From assembly GCF_001677475.2 (NCBI RefSeq), contig NZ_CP015229.1: DNA of 64,000 nucleotides; one strand, 5' to 3'. Below, piece after piece: positions 22,628 through 39,483 of the stretch. Below the pieces are notes generated by a model, which was not told the DNA's origin, did no database searches, and was given only the letters and a program-made list of their open reading frames with translations. The translations under genes and the position numbers were made by a program. This DNA comes from Escherichia coli. Lineage in GTDB: Bacteria; Pseudomonadota; Gammaproteobacteria; Enterobacterales; Enterobacteriaceae. Numbering within the stretch: the stretch's first letter is position 1; the number at the start of each line of letters is the position of its first letter.

Positions 22628-22765
22628 AACAAGTAAGAATTGGCTCATGCCTACAGAACAGTTGGGTCGTAGCAGCCGTTCACCTGCGAACAAGAAAGTG
22701 CTACGGGTCTGAACTTTTGCCCCCAACTCTCCAAGAGACCGGCAAAAACCCTGACGGAGGTATCA

Positions 22766-22909: not shown

Positions 22910-23356
22910 TGACAGCGTAACAAGCTCGGCCCAGCTTTCGCTGGGCCTCCCATTTCTACCTCCCAAAATCTATTAGAAACAATAAGCCACTAAAGAAAGA
23001 GCTTTTGCTGGCTACAATACTCACATACAAACAATTTTTATTTTTCGCGGGCGTAAAAAAACGATGGGGCTGGCAGTCCGGAAGACGTCAGGGTACAGAG
23101 ATTTGTACCCGCCTCTCCCTGTGCATGAGCACAATAAGTAACCGAAGGCGGAATTCCGCCCTCGGTACTCACATATGAGAAACGATATTTCTTCCACCGA
23201 TACCCTTTATTTGGGTATCGCGAGTAAGCCCCAAAATCTGGGTGTTACTCTTACTACCCAAACTACGGGTAGTTTCCGTAGTTTCATGGTCGAGTTGCAG
23301 ATCTGCAACTCACCCACCAGCCAACGCAATTTTGCGTTATCGGGAATATCAGCAAG

Positions 23357-23641
23357 TTACCGCCGCAGTCGTTCCGGCTTCTTCCACTGGTAAGTATTTT
23401 TCGCGCTCTCCCTCCGTTGTTGAGAACGGCGACGGTATGCCAGCAACTCAAGGACTCTGATCCGTATGTCGCGCATATCCACGCCGTTAAGCTCGATACC
23501 GTCACGGCGCATCATCTCTGCCACCACACGCGCGTAATTTTCGGCTATCACGCTGTCCGGCTGCGTGGCCTCCTATTTGCTTGATGGTTGTTTGATTCCG
23601 GTAACGCGGCGGATTAATCCCAGCAATTCAGATTCTGTCAT
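23357..23641 (-). pseudogene. Amber-interrupted ORF downstream of terS (remnant of a packaging-module gene)
   Basis: MTESELLGLIRRVTGIKQPSSK, then in-frame TAG, then the 64-aa ORF 23357..23551 in the same frame; start overlaps terS stop. Confidence 0.35.
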
Positions 23642-23652
23642 AGTGCGCTACG

Positions 23653-23973
23653 TTACTTGTCTTTATTCGGCTGCAACTTATCCGGCACATTTCCGGTAGT
23701 TTCCATCAGGTAATCAGCCAGTATCTGTGGGAGGTTGTCGGCAACTCTGGCACTGGCATTACAGGCTTTAACCACTTCCCTTTTAAGCCCATCCAGCATA
23801 GCGGGGGTAATGTGTGGGAAGCTCCTTTGCATAGTAAGCGGGAGGCTGTCCATGATTGATGAAATCTGACTCGCCAGTTTTGAAAGCGCGTACATGCAAA
23901 ACTCTGTATCAATCACGTCACCGCGATCGCGCTCGTTTTTAAGTTCCTGCGCCTCCGCCTGTGCTGTCAGTAA
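23653..23973 (-). pseudogene. Small terminase subunit (lambda Nu1-like), C-terminal fragment separated from its N-terminus by the IS insertion
   Basis: Translation ...AQAEAQELKNERDRGDVIDTEFCMYALSKLASQISSIMDSLPLTMQRSFP... parallels lambda Nu1 C-terminal region (...AQADAQELKNARD...ETAFCTFVLSRIAGEIASILDGLPLSVQRRFP...) from memory. Confidence 0.7.
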
Positions 23974-24085
23974 TCTGATCCTGACTCGTAAGTATGAGAC
24001 GACAATAACTCAGTCCGCCTGGCGCCGATTATTCTGGCCGGTTTTGTAACCTGAGTGTCATTTACATGATCCAACAGGAAATGGC

Positions 24086-25465: not shown

Positions 25466-25510
25466 CCTGAGCAGTTATGAGCAACTACTGCGTGGCAAGG
25501 GAGGTTCGCA

Positions 25511-26266
25511 GTGAGCAATATCCATCACCTTGAACATAGCCTGCGTAAACTACGCCTGACACGAGTTGGAGCTGAATGGCACGCTCTGGAAAAACGAGCG
25601 CTGGCAGAAGGCTGGACACCATCGCGCTATCTTCTGACGCTATGCAATGAAGAACTCCTGTGGCGCGAGAGTGAAAAACTGCGTCGTTATAAAAAGGAGG
25701 CCCGGTTGCCAGTTGCCAAAACGCTGAGCGAATACGACTTCAGTCAGGTGCCGGAACTGAATGGAGCTCAGTTCCGGCAACTCTGTGAAACGACAGACTG
25801 GGTTGATGCAGGAGAAAACGTTCTGCTGTTCGGAGCCAGCGGGTTGGGGAAAAGCCATCTGGCGGCAGCGATCGTGGATGGCGTAGTAGGTCAGGGCTAC
25901 CGGGCCCGGTTCTACAGCGCAGGAGAGCTGTTGCAGGAACTACGTAAAGCCAGAGCTCAGTTGAAACTGAATGAGCTGCTACTGAAACTGGATCGCTACC
26001 GGGTGATAGTGGTGGATGATCTTGGCTATGTCAAACGCGATAGTGCCGAAACGGGTGTGCTGTTCGAGTTAATAGCGCATCGCTATGAACGTGGGAGCCT
26101 GGTGATAACCAGTAACCATCCGTTCAGCATGTGGGGCAGCATCTTCGTGGATGAGACTATGGCGGTGGCTGCGGCAGACAGGCTGATCCATCACGGATAT
26201 ATGTTCGAACTGAAAGGGGAAAGCTACAGGAAAAAGACAGCGAAGGCAGTAACAAGCGCGACTTGA
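25511..26266 (+). CDS. istB: IS21-family helper ATPase IstB
   Basis: 251-aa ORF with Walker A (GASGLGKSHLA) and Walker B (VIVVDDLGY) motifs; RBS gggagg upstream of GTG start. Confidence 0.85.
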   Translation: MSNIHHLEHSLRKLRLTRVGAEWHALEKRALAEGWTPSRYLLTLCNEELLWRESEKLRRYKKEARLPVAKTLSEYDFSQVPELNGAQFRQLCETTDWVDAGENVLLFGASGLGKSHLAAAIVDGVVGQGYRARFYSAGELLQELRKARAQLKLNELLLKLDRYRVIVVDDLGYVKRDSAETGVLFELIAHRYERGSLVITSNHPFSMWGSIFVDETMAVAAADRLIHHGYMFELKGESYRKKTAKAVTSAT

Positions 26267-26325
26267 TGTCGCCCTGAAGGGTGCGGCCAGTATAGTTGGC
26301 GCGAGTCGGCAAAACTAGTTGACGT

Positions 26326-26526
26326 CTAATATCGTAAGAGTTCATCATCATCAATCTCGCCTTTGTCGTTTGTAAGCTGGCTAATTGCATTGTTAACCCT
26401 ATTGTCTATCACGCTGGCAACATCATAAAACGCCTCACGGCCTTTACGTTCAACGGGAGTCACTCCCCACTTGTCGAATGCTGTAGCACTTACCCGGCAG
26501 CTTTGCGCCATGGTTTTTTTGTTCAT
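26326..26526 (-). pseudogene. Small terminase subunit (lambda Nu1-like), N-terminal fragment truncated at the IS boundary
   Basis: MNKKTMAQSCRVSATAFDKWGVTPVERKGREAFYDVASVIDN... parallels lambda Nu1 N-terminus (MEVNKKQLADIFGASIRTIQNWQEQGMPV...); ORF ends exactly at the IS junction. Confidence 0.7.
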
Positions 26527-26639
26527 CAGGTGCGATTTCATCAATATCCCAACTTGGTCAAGGTTTCAGGTTGGTGTGTTGGTGTTATCTTTCCCTTTTT
26601 ATTCATGGAGATAGAGCAAACAACAAAACCACCACCACC

Positions 26640-26745
26640 CCCCTGAAAAAGCTCATAAATAGCGAAAAACCGCGAGGTCGCCGCCCCGTAACGGGTCCAT
26701 ATGCCGGAAAGGACCCGTAAAAAAAGCCGGATTTCTCCGGCCTTG
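26640..26745 (-). other. Lambda-type cos site (cosN with flanking terminase-binding region)
   Basis: Minus strand reads ACGGGTCCTTTCCGG...CGTTACG-GGGCGGCGACCT-CGCGGTTTTTCGCTATTTATGA, nearly identical to the phage lambda cohesive-end region as I recall it (GGGCGGCGACCTCGCGGGTTTTCGCTATTTATGAAAA); lies ~150 nt upstream of the Nu1-like start. Confidence 0.75.
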
Positions 26746-26747
26746 TC

Positions 26748-27161
26748 TCAGATGGTTTTCAGTATGCGATCGATGTCGCCATCATCGCCCGGGTTTCTGC
26801 CAGCGTATGCCATACCAGCTGATACGGCTTTCGGGCTGTGCATGTCCATAAAGTTTTCAAAGGCTGCGGTAAGCTCTGGTGCAACCTTCTGGCGTTCCTG
26901 CTCTATGGTCATGCTAAGGATGCTTTTAGCCGTACCAACATCGATACAAGGCACGTTTGCCATTGCACGTAACAGCGGCTGATAGTCGCCAGATTCATCA
27001 AGCGCCATAATCGCATCAGAGCGCGGCTTGTCCTTCTCTTCCAGGCTGTTAAGTTGATATACGGCCTCGTAGGTTGATAAACCTCTGTCAGCCATTGCCC
27101 GCGCTTCGGCCTTAAATTTACTCGCCAGCGGTAGCGTCATGATGCTTTCATTCGTTGCCAT
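26748..27161 (-). CDS. Hypothetical protein (137 aa) between decoration-like gene and cos
   Basis: ORF with no motif I recognise; co-oriented with capsid genes. Confidence 0.55.
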   Translation of the reverse strand: MATNESIMTLPLASKFKAEARAMADRGLSTYEAVYQLNSLEEKDKPRSDAIMALDESGDYQPLLRAMANVPCIDVGTAKSILSMTIEQERQKVAPELTAAFENFMDMHSPKAVSAGMAYAGRNPGDDGDIDRILKTI

Positions 27162-27173
27162 CGTTCCCTCTGC

Positions 27174-27509
27174 TTATCGGGCCAGTGGCTGAACGGATAC
27201 GCCAGAACCCGCAAAGGCGGCGCATTTTTTCGCATCGGTGTCGACGCTCTCAGGCCAGTTAACGGCGGCGATATTAAATATCCCCGTCTTATAGCACTGT
27301 GCTGATTTCTGCGTCGACGTGTCAACGGGGTACGAGGTCAGATAAACAGCCTTGCCAGATTCCTGACCATCCCACGGCTTAAACTCGCCATTTTCCGCCA
27401 GCATCAGCGGGGTAAATTCCTGAATAACTCCAGCATCAGCGGCAAAATGTACCAGCGTCGTGGATACCTGCTGACTGCCTGCAAATAACTCAATGTATGG
27501 AGTGTTCAT
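27174..27509 (-). CDS. Head decoration protein (lambda gpD-like)
   Basis: 111-aa ORF, size and position next to an E-like capsid gene match lambda D (110 aa); assignment by context and size, weak sequence recall. Confidence 0.6.
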   Translation of the reverse strand: MNTPYIELFAGSQQVSTTLVHFAADAGVIQEFTPLMLAENGEFKPWDGQESGKAVYLTSYPVDTSTQKSAQCYKTGIFNIAAVNWPESVDTDAKKCAAFAGSGVSVQPLAR

Positions 27510-27520
27510 AGAATCCCCCG

Positions 27521-28576
27521 TTAAGCAATTTTGACGGTAACAAATTTGCGAATATCTGCCGGTACCGGCTGCGGTGCGCTGTGCGTCTGCACGTACTCAA
27601 TCGCCGGATCGCCATCCTCAATCCAGTTTTTCGGGTAGTACATGTTTTGCGTTGCGCCAGTTCTTACCGCTTCCGGATCCATAATCGCACCATAGGCCAC
27701 CAGCCCTTTATTGTTAGTGTTGCCCAGGACAAGCAAATCAGGCTCAAGGAAATATTTTTCGGTGCCATCGCTGTCGGTGTATTTGCCGGAATAGACGATA
27801 AGGGCCAGATCACCCAGATAGCCTTTAAAGCTCACCACTTCGCCCAGGTTTTTACAGGCCAGCTCTGCGGCGGATTCTGAACCACGGGAAAGATCGTACA
27901 GTTCACGGAATTTTTTAAAGCTGCGTAACGTGCGCCATACCTCAGCGCCCATAATCATGACGTTGGCGGGGCAACCAGCCTGATCGGTGTATAGTTCGAT
28001 GTCATAGATTGGATCGTGTGTTTCCTTATCTGCCTCAGACCACTTTTTGCCCGATCCCTGCGTAATGATGTTTTTAGTCGGGATTTTCCAGTCGATTTCG
28101 TATCTATTTATTCCTTCGCCCTCAATGATGTTTTTTCCGGTCGTGACCGCATTCACCGCCAGCCATTCTATGCGAGCTTTAATAGCGTTTACCTGGCGGC
28201 GCATGTTGCCAGTAATCAGGCGCATACGGCGATAAGTTGGATCGTTAAGCTGTGCCGGATCTTCTCCAGCCATGCGCATGATGGTTTTTGATGGATCGAT
28301 TTCGTGTTTTGGTTTCATATAGCCAGGGCGGATAGTGCTTGTTTCGTACCCTTTATCGCGCTGAACCTGACTCCCCACCATAGGCGAACAAAAAGCCGAC
28401 ATGGTGACTTCTTCAATATCCAGGGTATCTAACATGATGTCCTGCGTGTTGAAGGTTGCCACGTTCGGGAAAAACAGCGACGTAAACAGCGGACTGAATT
28501 TAAATTCCGAAATATCCCCACGATTCAGGTACGCGAAAAGCTGGTTAGTGTTAAGTGCCGTTGCTTTGCCTGTCAT
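27521..28576 (-). CDS. Major capsid protein (lambda gpE-like)
   Basis: 351-aa ORF aligning along its length with lambda E from memory: FKFSPLFTSLFF / FKFDPLFLRLFF, PGYMKPKHEIDP / PGYVKPKHEVNP, YSGKY...LVLGNTNN...YPKNW / YSGQY...MVLGNTQA...YPKNW. Confidence 0.8.
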   Translation of the reverse strand: MTGKATALNTNQLFAYLNRGDISEFKFSPLFTSLFFPNVATFNTQDIMLDTLDIEEVTMSAFCSPMVGSQVQRDKGYETSTIRPGYMKPKHEIDPSKTIMRMAGEDPAQLNDPTYRRMRLITGNMRRQVNAIKARIEWLAVNAVTTGKNIIEGEGINRYEIDWKIPTKNIITQGSGKKWSEADKETHDPIYDIELYTDQAGCPANVMIMGAEVWRTLRSFKKFRELYDLSRGSESAAELACKNLGEVVSFKGYLGDLALIVYSGKYTDSDGTEKYFLEPDLLVLGNTNNKGLVAYGAIMDPEAVRTGATQNMYYPKNWIEDGDPAIEYVQTHSAPQPVPADIRKFVTVKIA

Positions 28577-28815
28577 TATTCACCCCCATGAGTCTGATTC
28601 ATGCCCAGCGCCGCGCGTAAATAGGCGCGTACCTGCCAGCCTGTTGACGGCTCAACCATCGCCAGCGGCTCAAGTCCTGCCGCAATGCCTGCTTTTACGT
28701 TCTGCTGGTGGCGTTCCTTGAGCGCCTCCACGATGTCTGGGCTTATGTAAACTGTCACCCCGCCTTTTTTCTCTTCTGCCATAGTCGGAAATTCCTCTTT
28801 GACGTTAAAAATCAC
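28576..28815 (-). CDS. Hypothetical small protein translationally coupled to the capsid gene
   Basis: 79-aa ORF (possibly starting at internal MAEEKK); stop shares one base with the capsid ATG. Confidence 0.5.
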   Translation of the reverse strand: MIFNVKEEFPTMAEEKKGGVTVYISPDIVEALKERHQQNVKAGIAAGLEPLAMVEPSTGWQVRAYLRAALGMNQTHGGE

Positions 28816-28846
28816 AACTGGATGTTCATCCAGTTGTGATTATAAT
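28811..28846. promoter_or_regulatory. Perfect 14-bp inverted repeat plus TATAAT box upstream of the capsid operon
   Basis: atcacaactggatg-tt-catccagttgtgat immediately followed by tataat; read directly. Confidence 0.45.
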
Positions 28847-28951
28847 CATGATTTCATTTTACGCAATAATGTTGAGTTGTGTTGCAAATTGTGAAATGAT
28901 TTCCGGCAACAGTAGTCACCATACTGTTAGATAAAAGCCTCATATGCAAAA

Positions 28952-29028
28952 GCCCGATAAGACCCTCTGACCTTATCGGGCTTTTTTTGGGGCATAAAAA
29001 AGCCGGACTTCTCCGGCTTCTGTTACTC
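28952..29028. terminator. Pair of intrinsic terminator hairpins between the SSB gene and the capsid operon
   Basis: gcccgataag...cttatcgggc followed by T-run; and gccggacttctccggc flanked by A-run / T-run (functional on minus strand). Confidence 0.55.
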
Positions 29029-29033
29029 GTTGC

Positions 29034-29456
29034 TTAAAACGGTATGTTATCCCCGTACGGATCATCGTTACCCGCCTGTTGTTTTGCCCTGTTCAGTGCG
29101 TCAGTAGCCTGCCCTTGCTGGCCTTTTTTGCCGCCCGGTCGCGCCGTTCTCGCACTGATTACGCTGTCTGCGATAACCTGCCAGCCCTGCCGCGTTTCGC
29201 CGTTCTGGCCTGTCCACTGGCTTACCTGCATGTTACCCGCCACGCTCACCAGTTCGCCTTTGTGGTGTTTTGCCAGTGCGTCGGCCTGTCTGCCAAACGC
29301 CAGGACGGATAACCACATCGTCGCCGTTCCGTCATCTGCCTGGCTGCACGGAAGGGGGACCGCCATACTAGCCATCGTCATTTGTGTACCCTTGCTGGTG
29401 GTCTTTAACTGCGGGTCAGCCACCAGCCGCCCGTAAGCCGCTATCTGTGCTGTCAT
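29034..29456 (-). CDS. Single-stranded DNA-binding protein (island-encoded SSB)
   Basis: 140-aa ORF; Gly/Gln-rich linker and acidic C-terminal tip ...DDPYGDNIPF resembling the SSB C-terminal DDDIPF motif. Confidence 0.75.
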   Translation of the reverse strand: MTAQIAAYGRLVADPQLKTTSKGTQMTMASMAVPLPCSQADDGTATMWLSVLAFGRQADALAKHHKGELVSVAGNMQVSQWTGQNGETRQGWQVIADSVISARTARPGGKKGQQGQATDALNRAKQQAGNDDPYGDNIPF

Positions 29457-29698
29457 GCTGTCTGCTCTCCGGTTTTAACGTTGATGGTTGTCACCTGTTC
29501 CGCTTCGGCAATCTCCCGTTCTGTCAGCGTGGCAAAGTTTGCAGCTGCCGTTGTCATGAATGCGCTAATCAGTTCGGGATGTGCTTTCGCATATCCTTCC
29601 CCGGCGTTGCGGTCGATGATTTTTATCGACACCCTTAACCAGTGTTCCGTCAAATCAAGGGCGTGCGATTGTGATTTTTTTGTGTGCTTCGCTGTCAT
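29453..29698 (-). CDS. Hypothetical protein (81 aa), coupled to ssb by ATGA overlap
   Basis: ORF directly downstream of the iteron array; no recognised domain. Confidence 0.5.
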   Translation of the reverse strand: MTAKHTKKSQSHALDLTEHWLRVSIKIIDRNAGEGYAKAHPELISAFMTTAAANFATLTEREIAEAEQVTTINVKTGEQTA

Positions 29699-29742
29699 AG
29701 GCTTTATCTCACAGCAGTAAATTAAAATTTTTGCGTTTTAAC

Positions 29743-29971
29743 CCTTCACCTGTTCACCTTTTGATATTTTCCATTTAAATTCATACTGTTAAGGGGTGAA
29801 CAGTTTCACAAAAACTATTCACCAACTGTTCACCACTGTTCACCCTTGAAGCTCAATAAACAACCAAAAAGGTGAACAGTGAATAGTTTGGTGAATAGTT
29901 CATAAATAACTGTTCACCCTATAATATACTGATATAAAAGATATTTATGACAGGGTGAACAGTGGTGAACA
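29743..29971. repeat. Iteron array (P4 ori/crr-type TGTTCACC octamers)
   Basis: Perfect TGTTCACC at 29751, 29827, 29837, 29911 and its complement GGTGAACA at 29795, 29871, 29954, 29964, plus degenerate copies (tattcacc, ggtgaata), within ~230 bp immediately 3' of the primase gene. Confidence 0.8.
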
Positions 29972-29985
29972 GTTATTCCATAAGT

Positions 29986-31803
29986 TTAATTTTTGCTATC
30001 GTCATTAGTGACTGATACACATGATGGCATCCAGTCTTCTGATTCCTCCGTCAGTGTCACGTTTGAACGTAAACCGTGCTTCGTTTTCCGTTTTATATAC
30101 TCCCTGCCATATTCCGCCATTGCCCCAGGCATATCTTTACCGAAGCGCGTCAGTGTTACAGGTTTACCAAACCCATGAGCCCTCATATAAGCCAGATAGG
30201 CATGATAGAGATACCTGCGCGGGCTGAATGGCACAATTTCAGCATTACCCACTAACAGGCCATCACACATTACCGACGCCATGAGATAGCCGCAGAAGTC
30301 CACCAGCGAATCCCCCTCTCGCTTTATCGCCAGTGCTTCTTCAGATTTCTGCTGCTCATATAACAGGCGTCTGGCTTCGTCCTGGTCAGCAAACCTTGTA
30401 AGCAGATGGCGAATCACTACCGCCAGCTCACCTTCTATTTTTTCCGCCAGCATCGGATCGCGTTCGTTCTCCGGTACAACTTCCGAAAAATTGAATATCA
30501 CCCGACGACGTGAGATCCCCCCGCTGCGGTCACTGAATGACATGGCGTTATTGTTAACCGCCAGCACTACTGCCGGAATACGCGTTGAGTAGGGGGCTTT
30601 GTGTTTCGGGTCAATTGCCACCTTGTCACCGCCTGTAATGGCCTTAATTCCTGCCCCATCACCAGCGTAGCGGGTCATATCCGGCATGATAATCAGCGAA
30701 AAGCCAACCACTAACGCGCGTTCCCTTGCATCTTCCAGCGCCTTCATGCTTGCCGATACTGTGTTGGCCTTACCCGCCAGCATGGTGCAAATCTCCGCCA
30801 TCACGCTTTTACCACTTCCCCCTGGACCTGTTACCTCAATGAATAACTGCCAGTCGTACCGGTTCGCCAGCACCATGAATAATGCAGCCAGTACGCGATC
30901 CGCCTTGCGGTCATTCTCAGCCACCGAACGGCGTAACCACTTCCAGAAATTCGGCGCATGTGTTGCCAGCGTTTCCCCCTCTGCTGGTGGGCTGAAAGGT
31001 AATTCACTGGCAATTAACAACCAGTCGTTTTTGTTATGCTCCCGAAAATTACCTGTTCTGGTATCAAATACCCCGTTACTGAATCCAATCAGGTTACGGG
31101 CTGTATTCCCCATTACAGGCAAACTTAACTTCATGGTATCGACCGCCGATTTAATGGCGTTCTGCGAATAGCTGATCTCCGCATCAATGAAAATCTGCGC
31201 CATAGCACGCTGTAACTCTTTATCCTGAACCGGCTCCCATACAACGCCGTTGTAATGGTGAACAGTGTCAGAGTCAGCATGAATCGCCAGTTCACCGCCA
31301 TAATGTGCCAGGAGAACTTCGCCGCGTTGACTTGCTCCCATCTGGTTAAGCGCCAGTGATGAAGCGTTATCGTCTTTTACCCGCTCTTTTTTCTTTACAG
31401 GCAGTTCAACTACCTTTTTCTTTTCCGCCAGCTCTGCCCGTTCACGTTCCAGATATTCGCGCCAGTTCTCCCGTTTCTGGCTGTGCATTCCTTCAGGATA
31501 ATAATCAGCATCCCTGACACCTGCCGCTGCCAGTTTCTGCCCGATGGTATTAACAAGCCCCGGACGCAATAACCCCGCCTGGTAGAGACGCACACGATAG
31601 CGTCCGTCCGGTACGATTTGCAGGTTGTCCAGTTCGGCAAGTTGTTGCTCTCCAAGCCAGACAGGAGGCACGTTATCGCCAGCCAGTCGCCCGTCCTGTT
31701 CCTGCCACTGCTTCGCATGTGCCCACGCATCACTACCCGCAAAAATGATGACTTCCGTCATTTTGTCACGTGGCTGGTGTTTTAAATTTGGCGCTTTTTT
31801 CAT
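29986..31803 (-). CDS. Satellite replication protein (P4 alpha-like primase-helicase, D5-type NTPase)
   Basis: 605-aa ORF (likely start MKKAP with ATGA overlap to upstream gene); Walker A GPGGSGKS; adjacent to TGTTCACC iterons. Confidence 0.75.
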   Translation of the reverse strand: MKKAPNLKHQPRDKMTEVIIFAGSDAWAHAKQWQEQDGRLAGDNVPPVWLGEQQLAELDNLQIVPDGRYRVRLYQAGLLRPGLVNTIGQKLAAAGVRDADYYPEGMHSQKRENWREYLERERAELAEKKKVVELPVKKKERVKDDNASSLALNQMGASQRGEVLLAHYGGELAIHADSDTVHHYNGVVWEPVQDKELQRAMAQIFIDAEISYSQNAIKSAVDTMKLSLPVMGNTARNLIGFSNGVFDTRTGNFREHNKNDWLLIASELPFSPPAEGETLATHAPNFWKWLRRSVAENDRKADRVLAALFMVLANRYDWQLFIEVTGPGGSGKSVMAEICTMLAGKANTVSASMKALEDARERALVVGFSLIIMPDMTRYAGDGAGIKAITGGDKVAIDPKHKAPYSTRIPAVVLAVNNNAMSFSDRSGGISRRRVIFNFSEVVPENERDPMLAEKIEGELAVVIRHLLTRFADQDEARRLLYEQQKSEEALAIKREGDSLVDFCGYLMASVMCDGLLVGNAEIVPFSPRRYLYHAYLAYMRAHGFGKPVTLTRFGKDMPGAMAEYGREYIKRKTKHGLRSNVTLTEESEDWMPSCVSVTNDDSKN

Positions 31804-32099
31804 TTCTGCTCTCTCCACGCGGCAATCATGTTTTTCAGTTCCTGTAGTTTTTTATCAACATCCATACATGACACATGGTTATTTCTGGAAGGCGGGATTT
31901 CCCGCCGGAATCTGCAAATAAAGATCTCCACGTTCAGCGAGCTATGAAATGAATAGCCATCACGAATAAAATACACACGGTCAAACATTATCGATTTTAC
32001 TGTTACTCTGTTGCCGTTCTTATCCCGATAAATAGCGCCGGGGATAATTTTGGGATGTGCATAACCGCTGGCAGTCAAGCCAGATAAATACGTTCTCAT
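31800..32099 (-). CDS. Hypothetical protein (99 aa)
   Basis: ORF translationally coupled to the primase gene; no recognised domain. Confidence 0.5.
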   Translation of the reverse strand: MRTYLSGLTASGYAHPKIIPGAIYRDKNGNRVTVKSIMFDRVYFIRDGYSFHSSLNVEIFICRFRREIPPSRNNHVSCMDVDKKLQELKNMIAAWREQK

Positions 32100-32105
32100 G
32101 ATTAT

Positions 32106-32426
32106 TTATCCCCGATTTGAATCAGTATTCGCTTTCTTTATGGCATTTAATGCATCTGTGGCATTTTCAATGGTGCACCGTAACGAAATATCAAAATGTC
32201 CAAGCATTGCCAGTAACAAACCGATATTACCCATATCAATGCGCATGGCCTTTTCGTCATAGTCCTCATTTTCTGACGCATGCCACATCAGGCTACCAAT
32301 TGACGCAACGGCCATTGATATATTGTCAGTCGCCCCATCCGCAGCGGAATAAACCTTTTTAGCAATATCATGCTCACAGTTAAAATGCGGATTAATCAGG
32401 TACTGGTAATTTGACATATCAGGCAT
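32106..32426 (-). CDS. Hypothetical protein (106 aa)
   Basis: ORF upstream of the 99-aa gene; lower GC than flanking island DNA. Confidence 0.5.
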   Translation of the reverse strand: MPDMSNYQYLINPHFNCEHDIAKKVYSAADGATDNISMAVASIGSLMWHASENEDYDEKAMRIDMGNIGLLLAMLGHFDISLRCTIENATDALNAIKKANTDSNRG

Positions 32427-32622
32427 GGCACACCCCCTGACGAATACGGGCGGCGAATACCATCACGCAGCCAGCCGGGGAGTGCTGGCGTGCTTCCTGT
32501 TCGCTGGTGGCCACGATGGTAATCACACGCGGTTTTGCGGCGCTCAGGGCGATAAAACGCCAGGCGAATTTATTCAGGTTGTGCGAATCCCGCCCTTGCG
32601 GGTGTATGGTATGATTTCTCAT
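32419..32622 (-). CDS. Small protein, possibly Icd-like (host cell-division inhibitor family of P4-like elements)
   Basis: 67-aa ORF MRNHTIHPQGRDSHNLNKFAWRFIALSAAKPRVITIVATSEQEARQHSPAGCVMVFAARIRQGVCHA; the family assignment is from memory of similar annotations and is tentative. The 334-aa ORF in the track is an upstream stop-free extension that looks non-coding. Confidence 0.45.
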   Translation of the reverse strand: MRNHTIHPQGRDSHNLNKFAWRFIALSAAKPRVITIVATSEQEARQHSPAGCVMVFAARIRQGVCHA

Positions 32623-32717
32623 AGCTACCTCGATACTCTCGTTATCGTTGGTGGTTAGAAGCCCTGCGAGTGGTAACGACACTTGCGGGGCTTTGTTTTT
32701 TGTTGCACTTACTGTTA

Positions 32718-32763
32718 ATGTACGTACGTAATATTGATGATAATAGGAGTTACGTACGTACAT
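32718..32763. promoter_or_regulatory. Twin palindromic operator (two copies of TACGTACGTA, 30 bp apart) in a divergent promoter region
   Basis: atgtacgtacgtaat at 32718-32732 and gttacgtacgtacat at 32749-32763; second copy overlaps the start codon of the RHH-like gene. Confidence 0.55.
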
Positions 32764-32953
32764 GTCAACATTAAAGCGGGATAAATCACCACGCGGCGAG
32801 GGATGGTCGCCGACATTCCAGATACGAATTAGCAAAGAACTACGCCAGCAAGTAAACGAGGCAGCAACCGCCGATGGCCTAACCCTCGGCAATTGGTTTA
32901 AAGAATTAGCTCGTGCCGAACTAAAGCGACGCGGCATTGAACCTAAAGGCTGA
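32762..32953 (+). CDS. Small DNA-binding protein, probable ribbon-helix-helix fold
   Basis: 63-aa ORF; TFQIRISKELRQQVNEAA... resembles a beta-strand plus helix RHH pattern; two short basic ORFs follow at 32957-33082 and 33138-33317. Confidence 0.5.
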   Translation: MSTLKRDKSPRGEGWSPTFQIRISKELRQQVNEAATADGLTLGNWFKELARAELKRRGIEPKG

Positions 32954-33429
32954 TGTATGACTGAAAAGCAGACCGATAACAAACTTTCTCTACCAGAGAA
33001 TAAACCAGCAGGCTTCTTACCAAGAAAAATCCTTGATGAGATCAAACGCCGCCAGCGGCGCAAGGCCAAAGAGCAGGAGTAACCATCACCAGCGCCGTGG
33101 TGCGGTGAACTGTGGCGCACAGGGTTACAGGTATCTACGATGACTGACAAATCATTAAAGAAATTATCCTCATCCAAGAAAAAACAACGCAAAAATGCGG
33201 TAAACGAACATGAACCGGAGAGATTCGCACCATGTGCGTTTATCCTTGAGAAGTACCTTAAAGAGTATTCTAGGAAAATACGCTCATTGCAGGCATGGCA
33301 GCGAATCGAGCCAGACTGATAGCATTGCCCACCAGCCAACAACCTGGTATTCTGGATATGCTCAAGTTTAGTGTTATGCCACTGGCGGCCCTCTGCGGTC
33401 GCCTTTGTTTTATGTGCCATCACTCCCCC

Positions 33430-33648
33430 TTACACCGTCTGCGTTCTGCGAGTGGATGCAAGATAAGCATCGAGATCAGTGCGCATATACAGCACTTTGC
33501 GCCCCAGCTTATGGAAAGGGATTTTTACCTTGCCAGTACAGGCCCAGTTCGCCAGCGTTTGATTGTTAACGCCAAGGTAGGCAGCAGCTTCAGCACGTGT
33601 AAGGCGGTCAGTTGATAAATCAGATTTCTTTAAATTCATATCTATCAC
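33430..33648 (-). CDS. alpA: AlpA/excisionase-family HTH regulator
   Basis: 72-aa ORF with LTRAEAAAYLGVNNQTLANWACTGKVKIPFHKLGRKVLY (MerR-like HTH_17 pattern). Confidence 0.75.
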   Translation of the reverse strand: MIDMNLKKSDLSTDRLTRAEAAAYLGVNNQTLANWACTGKVKIPFHKLGRKVLYMRTDLDAYLASTRRTQTV

Positions 33649-33709
33649 CGTGTACTTCTAAGTAACAACGGTGATAAATATCAATCAATGGGTATTTTGT
33701 TTTTAGCCC

Positions 33710-33786
33710 AATAGCCAGTTGCTGTGGGGAGGTTACCAGTTATTTAGCCTTAATAGCCAGCTATTAAGATACACTAGCCAGCTATT
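33710..33786. promoter_or_regulatory. Three TAGCCAG-containing operator-like repeats upstream of alpA
   Basis: aatagccagttgc (33710), aatagccagctatt (33752), ctagccagctattg (33773); plus inverted repeat atcaccgtg...cacggtgat at 33651-33682. Confidence 0.45.
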
Positions 33787-34507
33787 GGGGGTGAACAAGT
33801 TCAAACGAAGAATATTTATCAGGTCTTGGTGGTTGTGCTCCTGATTCTTTAATCCATTTATCCAGAGTGTTTTTACTTACTTTCCCATGATAGTAAACAG
33901 AAAGCTCGTTCAATAAACCTGTTTTACTGGCTTTAGGGTACTTTTCCCATGTTAGTTTAATTACGTGCATAACTTCATTGTAATAATGATTTCTTGGTTT
34001 GCGCGCTTTTTCTTTCTGTGATAAGGATAAAGCATCTTTTATTTTTTTATCTTTTTCATGGTTCGATATAATTTCTTCAAAAAAGTCATTAAGCAATAAC
34101 TCAACACCAACCCTAGTAAGTTTGTCTGCGTGATTACGCATTCCGACATGGTACAATGCAACTGCTGAATTTAAAGTATCGACAACCTGACAAGATAGTT
34201 TACTATCAAATATTAAAAAACCACATGAATCCATTCTTATAGCTAATTCAATAGGATATTGCTCGATTTCTCTTAATTCTAAACCATAACACAAAAGAAA
34301 TTCTCTTGTTGGATACTTTGATTTATAAAAATAATCTCTTATATCATCAATCAAGCGTTTTATAGCCTCTATGGTGGAGTTTTTCGGGGATAAAGATACA
34401 GGAACGTTTAAAACTGAAGAGTCTCGCCCACCAGTAATTAAATCATTCATAACCGAATAAATAATATATTGTTTGACCGATATATTGTTATCACCCATAT
34501 ATGTCAT
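33782..34507 (-). CDS. AT-rich orphan protein (241 aa) in the integrase-proximal cargo position
   Basis: Long ORF with visibly lower GC than the rest of the island; overlaps the int stop; no motif I can recognise. Confidence 0.6.
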   Translation of the reverse strand: MTYMGDNNISVKQYIIYSVMNDLITGGRDSSVLNVPVSLSPKNSTIEAIKRLIDDIRDYFYKSKYPTREFLLCYGLELREIEQYPIELAIRMDSCGFLIFDSKLSCQVVDTLNSAVALYHVGMRNHADKLTRVGVELLLNDFFEEIISNHEKDKKIKDALSLSQKEKARKPRNHYYNEVMHVIKLTWEKYPKASKTGLLNELSVYYHGKVSKNTLDKWIKESGAQPPRPDKYSSFELVHPQ

Positions 34508-35912
34508 TCTTTTCTTGTACTATAGCAAATAGTAAACGACGTTTTTCATCATCACTCATGCCCTCCAGTGCGGAAAGTAATTGCGCATCGATAGATTTTT
34601 TACTCTCCACCAGCCCGGCATGTTCCAGAATTGCCCGTTCTATCCGTGATGCTGGCTCCAGCAGTTCATCAGCACCGAAATGTAAATACCCCTGCGTTAC
34701 GTCGGCACTTCGCATAGTGCGGTGATTCATCAGGCGCTTGAGGATGTAATTACCCACGCCCACCAGCTCAGCAACCGTTCCGAACGTCCGGCGTGCGTCG
34801 TGCCACTTAAACGGGACAGGGAAGAGCATTTCATCGTTCGCCTCAGGAATGGTAGCCGCGCTTATCCGGTCTATGATGTGCCGTGTCTCCTGAATCACTC
34901 CCTTCACGCCAGGAAACACCAGCACATCATCAGCAGCTTTGTTTTTTAGCCTGCGAAGAAACATTTTCCGCAACGTATCAGTGATCGGCAGTTCAAGCGG
35001 ATCCCCGTTTTTCGTGGTGTCTATCCAGAAAAAGCGACCGCCCATATTCACGCGATCCCACGTAAGGCCAAAAACTTCTGATTTCCTCAGTCCGGTAAAC
35101 AGTGCCATTTCCACGGCATCACATACCGTAACAGCTATATCATCCCTTTCCTGTTCGCCCTGGTCGCGCACAGCAGCTACAGCAGCAAACCAGCGGGGAA
35201 AATCATGCAGGCGGATACGTTCCGTTTTTCTTACCGTTCCGTGCCACTGGCGCTTGGTGCTCAGTACCAGAGTCGGCGGATCCGGTAAAAGAGTATTACC
35301 CGCATCATCACGGTAATGATCATGCGCAAACCGACACACAGCACGTAGCGCACGCGCCCATAAATCGGCCTGTGCCTTGCTTCCTGTACCAACCCCAGCC
35401 CGTAACGTGGTTTTATCAGCACCGAACCATACAGCCCCATCAGTGATGGCCTTATGCCGTTGTTCCACCCGTTCGCGGGAAATACTGGCGAGGGTATGGG
35501 CCATCCAGTCACCGGAATAATTCTGTAATATGCTGCGGTACTGTTTTTCTGTGGAGGGTTTCAGGCGGTGGCCACGATTTTTTACGTAGGCGTCAATCGC
35601 CTCACTCAGCGTTATCATGGCCTTGTTGTTAGTGCGCTTTGCTATGTTCGGATTTATCCCCGTTGTGGCGACTTCGCCAAGGAGTTCCATAGCTTTAGCC
35701 CTGGCATTATCCACGCTCAGATCAGGAAAACGCCCCAGCGTTGCACGAATAAATTTTCCGTTACGCTTACGGGAAATGCAGAAACTTTTCACACCAGACG
35801 AACCTACACGGACACGCAGCCCGTTAACCTCCGTATCACCATATTCGACCTGTCCATGTTCCGGCGTTGGCAGTTCTGCAATTTTTACTTTAGAGAATCT
35901 GAATAATTTCAC
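34491..35912 (-). CDS. int: Tyrosine site-specific integrase
   Basis: 473-aa ORF from a GTG start; catalytic signature region (LRKSE..., WHDARRTFGT, ...QGYLHF) with an N-terminal arm-binding-like domain. Confidence 0.85.
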   Translation of the reverse strand: MKLFRFSKVKIAELPTPEHGQVEYGDTEVNGLRVRVGSSGVKSFCISRKRNGKFIRATLGRFPDLSVDNARAKAMELLGEVATTGINPNIAKRTNNKAMITLSEAIDAYVKNRGHRLKPSTEKQYRSILQNYSGDWMAHTLASISRERVEQRHKAITDGAVWFGADKTTLRAGVGTGSKAQADLWARALRAVCRFAHDHYRDDAGNTLLPDPPTLVLSTKRQWHGTVRKTERIRLHDFPRWFAAVAAVRDQGEQERDDIAVTVCDAVEMALFTGLRKSEVFGLTWDRVNMGGRFFWIDTTKNGDPLELPITDTLRKMFLRRLKNKAADDVLVFPGVKGVIQETRHIIDRISAATIPEANDEMLFPVPFKWHDARRTFGTVAELVGVGNYILKRLMNHRTMRSADVTQGYLHFGADELLEPASRIERAILEHAGLVESKKSIDAQLLSALEGMSDDEKRRLLFAIVQEKNDIYG

Positions 35913-35935
35913 TCATACACCCCACCAAGCGATCT

Positions 35936-35997
35936 GGTATCCTGGAAAATCGCTTGTTCTGCTCCAGGATACCTATAGGATACCGTAAAGAAGTATT
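35936..35997 (+). promoter_or_regulatory. Arm-type repeats near attR, directly upstream of the integrase start
   Basis: ggtatcctgg / ccaggatacc inverted pair plus tandem GGATACC copies and the block shared with 22594-22627. Confidence 0.45.
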
Positions 35998-36092
35998 TTG
36001 GGGTATATACAGGTATTTATACAGTAGTTTTAAAAAATGCTAAGGTATTGAAAAGTATCGCTAAGTATCTGTAAGTAAAGGGTTATCAACCA

Positions 36093-36141
36093 ACTCATAA
36101 TCGCTTGGTCGCTGGTTCAAGTCCAGCAGGGGCCACCAGAT
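36093..36141 (+). repeat. attR core (displaced partial copy of tRNA-Ile 3' end)
   Basis: 49-bp exact copy of 22506-22554; upstream sequence is not tRNA-like, so this is not a functional tRNA. Confidence 0.85.
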
Positions 36142-36191
36142 ATAGCAAAGGCTGACGAGAAATCGTCAGCCTTTTTCTTTTTATATATCAG

Positions 36192-36956
36192 TTACTTTGC
36201 GTGCCAGTAAGCCGCTGCACGTACCCGCTGTGGATCATACTGTTCCGCTTCAAAGCGGCGGCTTAAATTCTTAACGACTTTGCCTTCGCCGGTTATCCAG
36301 ATGAAGTAATCATCGGCAGGGATTTGCATCTGCGCCAGACGCGCATCTACTGCCTGCTCATCATGTGCCAGCCATTCGATATTAAAACCATCAAGGTGCG
36401 CGAGATAATCCTGACAGGCGTTATCCCGCACGCTAACCAGCGCACTAACTTGCGGTTTAACGGCAAGTTTGCTCAACGTTTCCAGGCGGCGGCGCAGTGC
36501 GGGCATTCCGGATTCATCGCAGACATACAGCTGATACGCGTAATCTTCCGGCACCACCAGCGAACCGCGGGGACCTGCCACCGTGAGTTTATCGCCCGGT
36601 TGCGCCTGCATTGCCCAGCTGCTGGCGACGCCACCTTCGTGAATAAAGAAATCAATCGCCAGTACATGGCGTAGTTCGTCATACAGCGGTGTATAGTCAC
36701 GCGACGGTGGGCGTGGTCCTTCCGGCCAGACGATGCCCTCTTCCGTTACTGTTGGCGGCACAAAGTGAGCATCAGATTGAGGAAAGAAGAGTTTGCTGTG
36801 ATCGTCAAAGCCGCGCGATGTAAAACCGTCCAGCGCCTCGCCGCCAAAGACAATGCGCTGAAAACCGGCGCTAATACGCTCAACGCGTAGCACAGTCAGT
36901 TCACGGAAGCGCAGATCATTGCGAACGCGCTGCGGGTAGCGGGGGGAGTTATTCAT
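36192..36956 (-). CDS. yqjH: NADPH-dependent ferric-siderophore reductase (siderophore-interacting protein)
   Basis: 254-aa ORF, FAD-binding/ViuB-like; divergent from yqjI. Confidence 0.88.
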   Translation of the reverse strand: MNNSPRYPQRVRNDLRFRELTVLRVERISAGFQRIVFGGEALDGFTSRGFDDHSKLFFPQSDAHFVPPTVTEEGIVWPEGPRPPSRDYTPLYDELRHVLAIDFFIHEGGVASSWAMQAQPGDKLTVAGPRGSLVVPEDYAYQLYVCDESGMPALRRRLETLSKLAVKPQVSALVSVRDNACQDYLAHLDGFNIEWLAHDEQAVDARLAQMQIPADDYFIWITGEGKVVKNLSRRFEAEQYDPQRVRAAAYWHAK

Positions 36957-37232
36957 TGTTATCGCCTTCGTGATAGTAATAAGATATATCTAAATAAATT
37001 TCGTAAATGATAATGATTGTTAATCATGATAAATGCAAGCGATTTGTAGAACTGATACATCTGAGGTATGAGAAGACATTCAACGTCGTAGAAAGGCTGG
37101 CGGATGCGGCGTGAACGTATTATCCGGCCTGGATGTGAGGTGCATTCACGTTTAAAAATCATTTTTATACTTGCAAGAGCGCTCATGTCAGATATAAATT
37201 AGATATATCTAATTAAGCAAAAGGAGGCTGAT

Positions 37233-37856
37233 ATGAGCCATCATCACGAAGGGTGTTGTAAACATGAAGGCCAGCCACGCCATGAAGGCTGCTGCAAAGG
37301 TGAGAAGTCAGAACATGAGCACTGCGGACACGGTCACCAGCATGAACACGGTCAATGCTGCGGTGGTCGCCACGGTCGCGGCGGCGGTCGTCGGCAGCGT
37401 TTCTTTGGTCACGGTGAATTGCGTCTGGTGATTCTGGATATTCTCTCGCGCGATGACAGCCACGGTTACGAGTTGATTAAAGCGATTGAAAATCTGACCC
37501 AGGGGAATTACACCCCAAGCCCGGGCGTCATCTACCCGACGCTGGATTTTCTCCAGGAGCAGTCGCTGATTACCATCCGCGAAGAGGAAGGTGGTAAGAA
37601 GCAGATTGCGCTGACCGAACAAGGCGCGCAGTGGCTGGAAGAAAACCGCGAACAGGTGGAGATGATCGAAGAACGCATCAAAGCGCGTTGCGTTGGTGCA
37701 GCGCTGCGCCAGAACCCGCAAATGAAGCGGGCGCTGGATAATTTTAAAGCGGTGCTGGATTTACGCGTCAACCAGAGCGATATCACTGATGCACAAATAA
37801 AAAAGATCATTGCGGTGATCGACCGCGCCGCTTTTGATATTACGCAACTGGATTAA
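37233..37856 (+). CDS. yqjI: PadR-family metal-responsive repressor with His/Cys-rich N-terminus
   Basis: 207-aa ORF, MSHHHEGCCKHEGQPRHEGCCKGE... followed by a PadR-type wHTH. Confidence 0.88.
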   Translation: MSHHHEGCCKHEGQPRHEGCCKGEKSEHEHCGHGHQHEHGQCCGGRHGRGGGRRQRFFGHGELRLVILDILSRDDSHGYELIKAIENLTQGNYTPSPGVIYPTLDFLQEQSLITIREEEGGKKQIALTEQGAQWLEENREQVEMIEERIKARCVGAALRQNPQMKRALDNFKAVLDLRVNQSDITDAQIKKIIAVIDRAAFDITQLD

Positions 37857-37863
37857 TCACCGA

Positions 37864-37958
37864 TTGCCGGATGCGGCGTACCCTACACACCCCGTAGGCC
37901 TGATAAGATGCGCCAGCATCGCATCAGGCATTGTGCTCCAACCGCCGGATGCGGCATA
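37864..37958. repeat. BIME (tandem REP elements)
   Basis: gccggatgcggcgtaccc... and ...ccgccggatgcggcatacc repeats between yqjI and aer. Confidence 0.65.
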
Positions 37959-37962
37959 CCGA

Positions 37963-39483
37963 TTAATGCAGCACCGTCACCGCGTCTTCCAGTCGGCTGG
38001 CGCGGTGTTTCACCATCGCCGACACCTGCGCACTCTCTTCCACCAGCTCGGCATTTTTCTGGGTGATCAGGTTAAGCTCATCCACTGCACGGGTCAGGCT
38101 GGAAAGCCCATCGGCCTGTTCCAGCGTTGAGTGGCTAATCTGGGCGATCAACTGGGTGACGTTTTTCACCTGTGCCACAATATCTTCCATCGTCCGTCCG
38201 GCGGCGTGTACCTGCTGCGAACCGGATTGCACCTTATCAGCACTGGCATCAATCAGCTTGCGAATATCGTTGGCAGCATTGGCGCTGCGGCTGGCTAAAT
38301 GACGCACTTCCCCTGCCACCACTGCAAAACCTTTGCCTTGTTCGCCGGCTCGTGCCGCTTCCACCGCCGCATTCAGGGCCAGAATATTGGTCTGAAACGC
38401 AATATCGTTAATCAGCGAAGTAATGGTGCCAATGCGCTGGGTACTGTCGGCGATATCGTCCATTGTCTTGATCACCGTGCTCATCGCCTCCCCGCCCTGC
38501 ACTGCCGCATTACTGGCAGTGATAGAAAGTTTATCGGCAGCCGACGCCGTGGCAGAGTTCTGTTTCACCGACGCCGCCATTTGGTTCATGGTCGCCACCG
38601 TTTGCTGAACGTTATCAACTGTCTGCTGGGTATGTTCGTTCAGTTCATCGGTGCCTTTCGCCAGCGTCTCACTGCCGTTTCTGACACTGGACACCTGGCT
38701 TGAGACATCGTTAATTAGCCAACGGCACATCAGGCCAAGCTGCCCTACCGCGCGTAATGTCAGCCCCAGCTCATCGCTGCGATTCAGATGCTCAACACTA
38801 TTACGCTCTCCGGTCGCCACCTTCAGTGACTGACGGGCGACATTTTCTATCGGGCGGACAATCTGCCATTCAAAACAGGCGCTTGCCAACAATACCACTA
38901 ACGCACAGAGGATATACGTCACCACCGGGGCAGCAACAAACCAAAGCATGACCGCCAGCAAGATAAACATCAGGGTCATCACGCCACGCGCCCGCCAGCG
39001 AAGCGGTAATGAAGGCAGTTTACCCAGCCAGCCTTTACGCACCACCAGGCCTTTATGAATACGCTTACTGGTACGTCCGGCGTTCAACGCTTTGTACAGC
39101 GGCTCCACCGCCGCGATCTCTTCATCCGTCGCCCGGGTACGAATCGACATATAGCCACTGATTTTTCCCTCACGCACCATCGGTACCGCATTGGCCCGCA
39201 CCCAATAATGGTCGCCATTTTTGCGGCGATTTTTCACGATGCCGCTCCAGGGCTCCCCTTTTTTCAGGGTGAACCACATATCCGCAAACGCCGCTTTTGG
39301 CATATCCGGGTGACGCACCATGTTGTGCGGCTGCCCTTGTAACTCTTGCAAGGTATAGCCGCTCACCTGTACAAAAGTGTCATTAGCATGAGTGAGATAG
39401 CTTTTCAGATCGGTAGTGGACATCAGAGTGGTATCGTCCGCCAGCGGGGTATTTTGCTGGGTGACATACGAATGAGAAGACAT
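37963..39483 (-). CDS. aer: Aerotaxis receptor (PAS domain plus MCP signalling domain)
   Basis: 506-aa ORF; N-terminal PAS, central TM hairpin, C-terminal methyl-accepting signalling domain. Confidence 0.9.
   Translation of the reverse strand: MSSHSYVTQQNTPLADDTTLMSTTDLKSYLTHANDTFVQVSGYTLQELQGQPHNMVRHPDMPKAAFADMWFTLKKGEPWSGIVKNRRKNGDHYWVRANAVPMVREGKISGYMSIRTRATDEEIAAVEPLYKALNAGRTSKRIHKGLVVRKGWLGKLPSLPLRWRARGVMTLMFILLAVMLWFVAAPVVTYILCALVVLLASACFEWQIVRPIENVARQSLKVATGERNSVEHLNRSDELGLTLRAVGQLGLMCRWLINDVSSQVSSVRNGSETLAKGTDELNEHTQQTVDNVQQTVATMNQMAASVKQNSATASAADKLSITASNAAVQGGEAMSTVIKTMDDIADSTQRIGTITSLINDIAFQTNILALNAAVEAARAGEQGKGFAVVAGEVRHLASRSANAANDIRKLIDASADKVQSGSQQVHAAGRTMEDIVAQVKNVTQLIAQISHSTLEQADGLSSLTRAVDELNLITQKNAELVEESAQVSAMVKHRASRLEDAVTVLH

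Follow-up and report, generated by a model that had tools for sequence, protein, structure and literature searches.

Which protein holds down the replication genes of Gram-negative phage-inducible chromosomal islands (PICIs)? These islands are widespread vehicles for virulence and anti-phage genes, and their founding paper described the global repressor as "unclear" (PMC6092414). The question arises at one locus in a 64,000-nucleotide stretch of Escherichia coli DNA (contig NZ_CP015229.1, assembly GCF_001677475.2), the whole of which we call the window. In an island within this window, an Icd-like gene at the head of the replication operon (32419-32622, minus strand) stands divergent from an open reading frame (ORF) for a predicted ribbon-helix-helix (RHH) protein of 63 residues (32762-32953, plus strand), and short palindromes lie between the two. 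We propose this protein as the repressor. Its binding to the palindromic boxes appears highly probable from the comparative sequence data; that it represses both the replication operon and its own gene is a reading which, taken as a whole, we consider likely. The locus would then provide a concrete candidate repressor and operator for Gram-negative PICIs, including the model island EcCICFT073.

The window contains exactly two copies of the 10-bp palindrome TACGTACGTA, at 32721-32730 and 32751-32760 (30 bp from start to start), just as an earlier note on this DNA had reported. No third copy was found in the 64 kb, even with one mismatch allowed. Each of the two copies is the core of one arm of an inverted repeat that is perfect over 14 nt, ATGTACGTACGTAA at 32718-32731 and TTACGTACGTACAT at 32750-32763. 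Twin 10-bp palindromes 10-60 bp apart arose by chance in 5 of 300 first-order Markov simulations of 64 kb (~0.017). Within the window this is only modest significance; the decisive support is the conservation of the sites in 51 of 55 related loci. What this family conserves is not the 10-mer that the earlier note had taken as the unit. The two sites are real, but the conserved element is an inverted pair of 8-10 bp boxes with the core GTACGTAC in the frame GGTnnnnACC, and the apparent 30-bp direct repeat is a by-product of the (TACG)n periodicity of the element in the window. The candidate operators are box 1 (TGTACGTACG, 32719-32728, core at 32720-32727) and its reverse complement, box 2 (CGTACGTACA, 32753-32762, core at 32754-32761), with centers 34 bp apart. 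The second palindrome had also been described as overlapping the start codon of the RHH gene. In fact it abuts this codon: the last base of the 10-mer is 32760 and the first of the ATG is 32762. The ATG is overlapped instead by the 10-bp box frame (a single nucleotide) and by the -35 hexamer that belongs to a leftward promoter. Nor does a spacing of three helical turns hold for the family, in which box starts are 33-35 bp apart (31 bp in two loci). This corresponds to ~3.1-3.3 turns, so exact helical phasing is unsupported. The window contains only these two GTACGTAC sites, and there are none elsewhere in the island that would mark other regulated promoters.

We compared ~80 related loci from Enterobacterales and Pasteurella and located the boxes by a frame-anchored search. 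Homologues of the 63-residue protein at 63-79% identity occur in Edwardsiella, Morganella, Klebsiella and metagenomes, and a scan of species-representative genomes supplied a further 75 loci. In almost all homologue loci the RHH gene is alone on its strand and divergent from an operon that ends in a primase, with AlpA and the integrase on the opposite side wherever the locus context was viewed in detail. The largest group carries the sequence [SA]PTFQIRI in the predicted beta-strand of the protein. Across 46 unique upstream regions of this class, the columns conserved to at least 90% are the two GTACGTAC boxes, the ATGTCAA at the start of the RHH gene and the TA of a rightward -10 element, while the inter-box spacer is free to vary. 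This column pattern defines the conserved unit as GTACGTAC in the GGTnnnnACC frame, repeated at 33-35 bp start to start. The core is found upstream of 51 of the 55 genes with the TFQ strand and upstream of none of the 20 others (Fisher p = 1.3e-14, uncorrected for shared ancestry).

Where the strand differs, different boxes take the same place. Proteins with [SA]PTFQIRI are paired with GGTACGTACC, those with SPQFRMRI with GGTGACCACC, [SA]PPFHMRI with GGTGTACACC, xPMFNVRx with GGTATAGACC / GGTCTATAC, N/APAFQIRx with GGTGTGTACC / GGTACAyAC, SPIFSVRL with GTATGGACC / GGTCCATAC, SPMLPIRI with GTATATGCC / GGCATATAC, SPQFKMRI with GGTGGCCTCC, and the Pasteurella strand SPQYQMRL with GGTAATTACC / GGTATATACC. 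The inner 4 bp read ACGT for TFQ, GTAC for PFH, GACC for QFR and ATAG for MFN. Box 1 and box 2 change in concert in every class. Non-palindromic boxes are present as inverted copies, except in three of the four SPQFRMRI loci, which have direct copies (GTGACCAC twice). A cognate repressor-operator pair predicts this behavior: a concerted change at both sites, confined to the predicted base-reading residues and the inner 4 bp, with boxes that are kept while the spacer diverges. With more than 10 natural pairs of beta-strand and box, the set is also a ready specificity table for RHH-DNA recognition.

The range of this module extends over Enterobacterales, the Pasteurella satellite Pmp8, a 106-kb Klebsiella phage and plasmids. 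It is thus not confined to satellites. In Klebsiella pneumoniae (locus L010) the RHH gene and boxes stand beside Mu-like Mor/gp27 genes, and in the Klebsiella phage P12620-1 (L089, 106 kb) they are found among genes annotated only as hypothetical. Two single-box variants, from a Pantoea symbiont (L042) and from Rosenbergiella (L054), have lost the interval between box 1 and box 2. In these loci the rightward -10 and one box directly abut the ATG, and the leftward -10 is gone.

Could the 63-residue protein read such boxes? The earlier note had called it RHH-like, and the Arc repressor is its best match, at a marginal level in sequence profile and also in predicted fold. A profile of 16 homologues searched against PDB sequences returned P22 Arc at the top (E = 0.007, residues 11-58, covering the whole domain), followed by MazE7, AmrZ and HP0222 at E-values of 0.2-0.9. 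Identity to Arc is ~20-24%. The alignment places P17-T-F-Q-I-R-I23 on Arc P8-Q-F-N-L-R-W14. Residues Q9, N11 and R13 of Arc contact bases, and by this alignment T18, Q20 and R22 are the predicted base-reading residues of the 63-residue protein. Its predicted beta-strand (S16-I23) alternates between polar and hydrophobic residues as the RHH fold requires, and positions 18 and 20 are those that vary with the inner 4 bp of the boxes across the ~80 loci. An AlphaFold2 model (predicted local distance difference test, pLDDT, 76) has an extended segment at 17-23 and helices at 25-37 and 42-56, that is, strand-helix-helix. The top 26 Foldseek matches in the PDB are all RHH proteins, including Arc, PutA, AmrZ, NikA and CopG; the match to Arc has a template modeling (TM) score of 0.85 and an rmsd of 1.3 Å over 42 columns. 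Family models give weaker signals: YlcI_YnfO_N (NF041551) scores 20.3 bits (E = 4e-4) against a curated cut-off of 30, PF05534 (HicB) scores 17.6 bits against a gathering cut-off of 21 and covers only the RHH part, and there are further weak, sub-cut-off matches to Arc, RelB, MobA and a PHROG "Arc-like repressor". As modeled, the protein is an Arc-like RHH.

Both boxes sit on predicted promoters. The leftward promoter P_L (32740-32768, minus strand) combines a -35 TTGACA (32768-32763), a 17-nt spacer and a -10 TATTAT (32745-32740). It matches the consensus at 11 of 12 positions, is the sole strong promoter of the region in a consensus scan, and has a predicted start at ~32733, from which it would drive the operon from the Icd-like gene to the primase. 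At the equal relative position P_L is the best minus-strand position weight matrix (PWM) match in all six loci scored. Its -35 overlaps the ATG of the RHH gene. The conservation of the first two RHH codons (ATGTCAA in most loci) can be explained on this basis, because TGTCAA read on the opposite strand is the -35 hexamer. In the P_L spacer, beside the -35 and just before the RHH ATG, is box 2; box 1 falls at about +6 to +13. The predicted rightward promoter P_R (32693-32721, plus strand) has a weak -35 TTGTTT (32693-32698) and an extended -10 TGtTAATGT (32713-32721). P_R would drive the RHH gene from a predicted start (~32728) inside box 1, which covers the -10/+1 region and includes the final bases of the -10. 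This position gives the top plus-strand PWM match in four of six loci, and in a fifth its score is no more than 0.5 short of the best; the motif TGnTA[AG]GGT is fused to box 1 throughout all operator classes. The earlier idea of a divergent switch is supported in that palindromes occupy both predicted promoters; the layout differs, since the predicted promoters are not back to back but face to face and overlapping. With predicted starts at ~32728 rightward and ~32733 leftward that face each other, the polymerase footprints would overlap.

A further candidate element covers the other end of the intergenic region. An extended -10 (P_as, TGgTATGAT, 32607-32615, plus strand) lies in the first codons of the Icd-like gene, with a predicted start at ~32622. 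Among 44 unique loci, T1 and A2 of its hexamer TAnnnT are each invariant (41/41), T6 is kept in 43/44, and position -14 is G in 40/41, while the middle three bases and the encoded N-terminal peptides vary. The predicted product is a cis-antisense RNA of ~80 nt (~32622-32704, plus strand), complementary to the start codon, Shine-Dalgarno (SD) sequence and leader of the Icd-like gene. Between the Icd-like start and box 1, a terminator scan located a GC-rich hairpin that in the window is followed by a T-run (32658-32694, plus strand). This hairpin was found in all related loci. The plus strand folds more stably in 44 of 44 (mean -21.1 vs -15.2 kcal/mol), and G-U pairs number 93 on the plus strand vs 15 on the minus strand. 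Compensatory changes affect 6 of 11 lower-stem pairs in an RNAalifold analysis of a length-homogeneous subset of 16 sequences; on a global MAFFT alignment of all 44 leaders, in which the hairpins are misaligned, the same program recovers almost no structure. Since it is plus-strand specific throughout, we read the hairpin as part of a plus-strand RNA. A simple terminator or a minus-strand leader structure was rejected, as the T-run is not conserved (e.g. in Pectobacterium) and the minus strand is disfavored. Where genera lack the T-run, the transcript may continue into the RHH gene. Rfam searches gave no match to C4, isrK, CI or another known RNA at E ≤ 1 over 26000-38000 and no credible match at E ≤ 10 over 32560-32790; permissive hits were at chance level (miRNA models on the palindromes, and ctRNA families at E 0.5-2). 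We predict this RNA as a candidate second negative layer. Without an Rfam family of its own, it would add an RNA layer to satellite control. The candidate RNA also contains an inner small hairpin and a stem that pairs GCUAC with GUGGU. In one related E. coli island (L006) the leader hairpin region is duplicated: a further copy with 88% identity follows the cassette (3475-3542).

These elements suggest the following mechanism. An Arc-like RHH dimer would sit on each box and read the core GTACGTAC through T18, Q20 and R22. Occupied boxes would shut off the Icd-like/DUF4222/primase operon at P_L and, by acting on the weak P_R, would keep synthesis of the repressor under negative autoregulation. 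Once the repressor is lost, the strong P_L would exclude P_R, which could give switch-like behavior. The antisense RNA, starting in the first Icd-like codons and ending at the 32658-32694 hairpin, would cover the ribosome-binding site of the operon. For derepression there are two candidates. One would be a helper-phage factor such as an antirepressor. The other could be read-through from an AlpA-activated promoter upstream: the gene for an AlpA/excisionase-like helix-turn-helix protein (HTH_17; 33430-33648, minus strand; PF12728, E = 1.4e-11; TIGR01764) lies upstream of the leftward operon in the same direction and is convergent with the RHH cassette. The rightward cassette ends in a terminator-like hairpin with a T-run (33384-33413, plus strand). 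The minus strand of this hairpin has no such run, and transcripts coming leftward from alpA would therefore pass through it. Because alpA is co-directional with the operon and no minus-strand terminator intervenes, such read-through could bypass P_L and silence the convergent repressor gene. In EcCICFT073, AlpA activates the genes of the island (PMC6092414), and AlpA overexpression alone induces it (PMC6092414). The earlier proposal of an autoregulated operator for the early genes of the island is supported by the match of the protein to Arc, the conserved boxes, their co-variation with the strand and their position on P_L and P_R. Its details fared less well, namely the 10-mer as unit, the promoter layout and the involvement of the downstream ORFs.

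Several observations weigh against the repressor-operator reading. All start sites are predictions from consensus scoring, and the SD sequence AGGAG (32745-32749) is 12 nt from the RHH ATG, which is long. Part of the co-variation reflects common descent, because the protein and the boxes are encoded within 40 bp of each other. A perfect box is missing from four of the 55 TFQ-class loci, and a few loci have a single box. The 33-35 bp center spacing is non-integral in helical turns, unlike that of the adjacent half-sites of Arc, CopG and MetJ. On the protein side, sequence support for the RHH assignment is marginal, with all family matches below curated cut-offs, and the Foldseek E-values are 0.15 or worse, a consequence of the tiny domain. 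Finally, the repressor is not obviously the master control, because AlpA overexpression alone suffices to induce EcCICFT073 (PMC6092414). By analogy we infer that the protein may act as a "master repressor" that is relieved in the manner of Stl.

In the most serious alternative, the box-binding protein would serve mainly in copy-number or replication feedback after induction, as on plasmids such as pMV158, with silencing and induction decided by AlpA. The controlled operon encodes primase and replication genes, alongside the RHH protein there is a candidate antisense RNA that covers the start of the first gene, homologues occur on plasmids too, and EcCICFT073, which AlpA alone can induce (PMC6092414), bears an equivalent cassette. 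Such an assignment must still account for the near-consensus P_L, which something has to keep off while the island is integrated in single copy. We regard it as unlikely as the main role, and the two roles are not mutually exclusive.

Alternatively, the inverted repeat could act as an RNA hairpin (in processing, stability or termination) within an alpA read-through or a long rightward transcript. The arms are indeed perfectly complementary over 14 nt, the two boxes keep their complementarity whenever they change, and the lone arm mismatch in the NPAFQIRI class (L073, L084, L085) would still pair on the plus strand, as G-U. Most arms, however, are palindromic themselves (GTACGTAC, GTGTACAC, GGTAATTACC), a property that a dimeric protein needs and a hairpin does not, and the direct copies in three of four SPQFRMRI loci would leave two central mismatches. 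The arm sequence moreover follows the beta-strand residues of the adjoining protein, the arms coincide with promoter elements, and the predicted rightward transcript starts inside box 1 and would include one arm only. Taken together, these points make an RNA role for the repeat decidedly improbable.

Even less probable is that the 63-residue protein is the antitoxin of a toxin-antitoxin pair with the palindromes as its operator. Several sources name homologues "HicB family antitoxin", and there are the weak matches to PF05534 (17.6 bits) and RelB. The PF05534 score falls short of the 21 bits that Pfam requires and derives from the RHH part only, the gene is alone on its strand in most loci, and its 41-residue neighbor is a probable recombination scar. 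Family searches found neither HicA nor another toxin family in the adjacent ORFs. With no toxin gene and a sub-threshold HicB match, we rejected this interpretation. Finally, although sites such as TACGTA and GTAC are of the kind cut by type II restriction enzymes and the chance level from the window by itself is just ~0.017, we can practically dismiss palindromes that are a chance (TACG)n product or restriction/methylation targets without a regulatory role, because the comparative data contradict this: the boxes are at fixed positions in 51 of 55 loci from many genera while the spacer diverges, and unrelated boxes substitute in concert where the beta-strand differs.

The preferred reading, a repressor with its two operator boxes, also gains from islands in which the whole cassette has been replaced. 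In related E. coli islands the Icd-like gene and leader are retained at ~90% identity, next to unrelated YlcI/YnfO proteins and unrelated repeated boxes (TGAATCGCAC, GTGTTAAACAC, GTGTGGCCCAC; TGGTACGTACCA in L005). Proteins in the same slot pass the YlcI_YnfO_N cut-off of 30 bits (L005, 31.1; L002, 63.3; L004, 59.7), and that of L005 is a relative of the 63-residue protein of the window. Homology between the window and these islands breaks at ~32695 and resumes at ~33037, which indicates that the cassette was exchanged by recombination. The two small basic ORFs that the earlier note had placed after the RHH gene are present, but neither belongs to the conserved module. The first, of 41 residues (32957-33082, plus strand), had no match in family searches, and it shares its C-terminus, RRQRRKAKEQE, with the YlcI proteins of L002, L003, L004 and L006. 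It is a chimera in which the 3' remnant of the displaced YlcI/YnfO-type gene supplies the C-terminal half, and probably a recombination scar. The second, of 59 residues (33140-33319, plus strand; phrog_21027, PHROG 21027, E = 5e-30), has homologues in L003, L004 and CFT073 and is absent from L005, L007 and L008. Judged by this distribution, it belongs to the old cassette and travels with the YlcI-type rather than the window-type RHH gene.

EcCICFT073 carries such a cassette, in which the YlcI/YnfO gene C_RS30120 and the Icd-like gene C_RS30125 are divergent (L088 243-1053; NC_004431.1 1380242-1381052). These two locus tags are numbered out of series with their neighbors, which suggests that the genes were annotated late. 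The -10 of a leftward promoter read by eye, TTGACG-18-TATAGT, has a GTGTGGCCCAC box on either side. Since boxes of a non-homologous cassette bracket it too, the leftward promoter of the replication operon may be the common target. We can tentatively extend this view, to a point where doubt prevails over confidence: the cassette (RHH or YlcI/YnfO protein, boxes, antisense RNA) could be the maintenance and immunity switch of Gram-negative PICIs including EcCICFT073, with specificity variants as immunity groups and with an induction that overrides the switch. The set of strands and boxes suggests that satellites diversify immunity through cassette swapping.

How does this cassette compare with known systems? 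The closest resemblance is to immI of phage P22, which combines the RHH repressors Arc and Mnt, the overlapping promoters Pant and Pmnt and the antisense RNA sar. There, too, a tiny RHH repressor acts inside a promoter spacer, with autoregulation, opposing promoters close together and a small cis-antisense RNA directed at the regulated operon, and Arc is the best match of the 63-residue protein in both sequence and structure. The two systems differ in the operator, with two boxes 33-35 bp apart here and two adjacent half-sites within 21 bp in P22, and in what is regulated, an Icd-like/primase operon of a satellite here and the antirepressor in P22. On plasmid pMV158, the RHH repressor CopG and the antisense RNAII limit expression of the replication gene, which parallels a small RHH autorepressor and a countertranscript on a replication operon. 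The repressor gene of pMV158 heads the operon that it represses, whereas the gene described here is divergent and its element is integrated and phage-dependent. MetJ likewise places one RHH dimer on each 8-bp palindrome with a CG-containing core (AGACGTCT vs GTACGTAC), although metboxes are tandem and adjacent, a corepressor is needed, and there is no homology past the fold. RHH repressors on overlapping promoters, and control of replication genes by an RHH protein with an antisense RNA, are classical (P22 immI, pMV158); what appears to be new is the architecture and place of the cassette.

The cassettes of the YlcI/YnfO family of small prophage proteins (NF041551) fill the same slot, likewise divergent from an Icd-like gene, with repeated boxes of their own and distant protein similarity, but their promoters are back to back and not face to face. 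In the S. aureus pathogenicity islands (SaPIs) and Gram-positive PICIs, the Stl/Rpr-Str control region also lies between the integrase side and the replication operon and is proposed to hold the island silent (PMC6092414). Stl, in contrast, is a large helix-turn-helix protein transcribed with int; the candidate described here is an RHH protein of 63 residues encoded opposite to every other gene of the island, and no helper-encoded antirepressor is known for it. The immI region of P1 (c4 antisense RNA-icd-ant) and the CI RNA of P4 share an Icd-like first gene, a structured leader and a suggested negative control by RNA, and C4/isrK-type RNAs are reported from some Gram-negative PICIs (PMC10111431). 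Our candidate RNA would be a true cis-antisense transcript instead of a processed sense-strand leader, and it has no Rfam match. A full-text literature search, with subscription-only papers outside its scope, found no published account of the cassette or of YlcI/YnfO function.

The surrounding island (22506-36141, 13.6 kb including an IS21 element) is integrated at tRNA-Met and bounded by 49-bp direct repeats at 22506-22554, the 3' end of the tRNA gene, and 36093-36141. It has the features by which Gram-negative PICIs are recognized: a size of ~10-15 kb, att repeats, an integrase (34491-35912), a regulator of AlpA type, a primase module and partial virion genes, in the gene order of EcCICFT073, the model Gram-negative PICI. 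The Icd-like gene (NCBIfam NF033153, E = 9e-18; also by Pfam and the A36 RefSeq annotation) is first in the leftward operon and is followed by a 106-residue ORF, DUF4222 and a D5_N/DUF5906 primase-helicase (29986-31818). Further island genes encode a single-stranded DNA-binding protein (SSB), a lambda E-like capsid protein and a D-like decoration protein. E. coli A36 contains the 32400-33450 region at 99.9% identity within a near-identical annotated island, in which the small cassette comprises the sole genes off the one strand that carries all others.

A few minor features of the region deserve mention. The left part of the island carries an IS21-family element (24086-26266; istA 24086-25465, istB 25511-26266), and in the corresponding area the near-identical island of A36 has a gene for the terminase small subunit (TerS). 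The sequence AAAAAAGCCGGAyTTCTCCGGC occurs twice (26720-26741 and 28996-29017) as a hairpin with an A-run before it, and hence a T-run on the other strand; the pair flanks the capsid/decoration block and probably represents terminators that delimit this module. Outside the island, Rfam gives a sub-threshold match to naRNA4, a nucleoid-associated RNA derived from repetitive extragenic palindromes (REP) (37897-37973, minus strand; 44.3 bits against a gathering threshold of 59.5). Upstream of the alpA-like gene, AATAGCCAG is repeated three times (at 33710, 33752 and 33773, within 33710-33781) with spacings of 42 and 21 bp. The copies lie partly inside the short palindromes CTTAATAGC/GCTATTAAG and may be sites for the binding of AlpA or integrase-arm sites.

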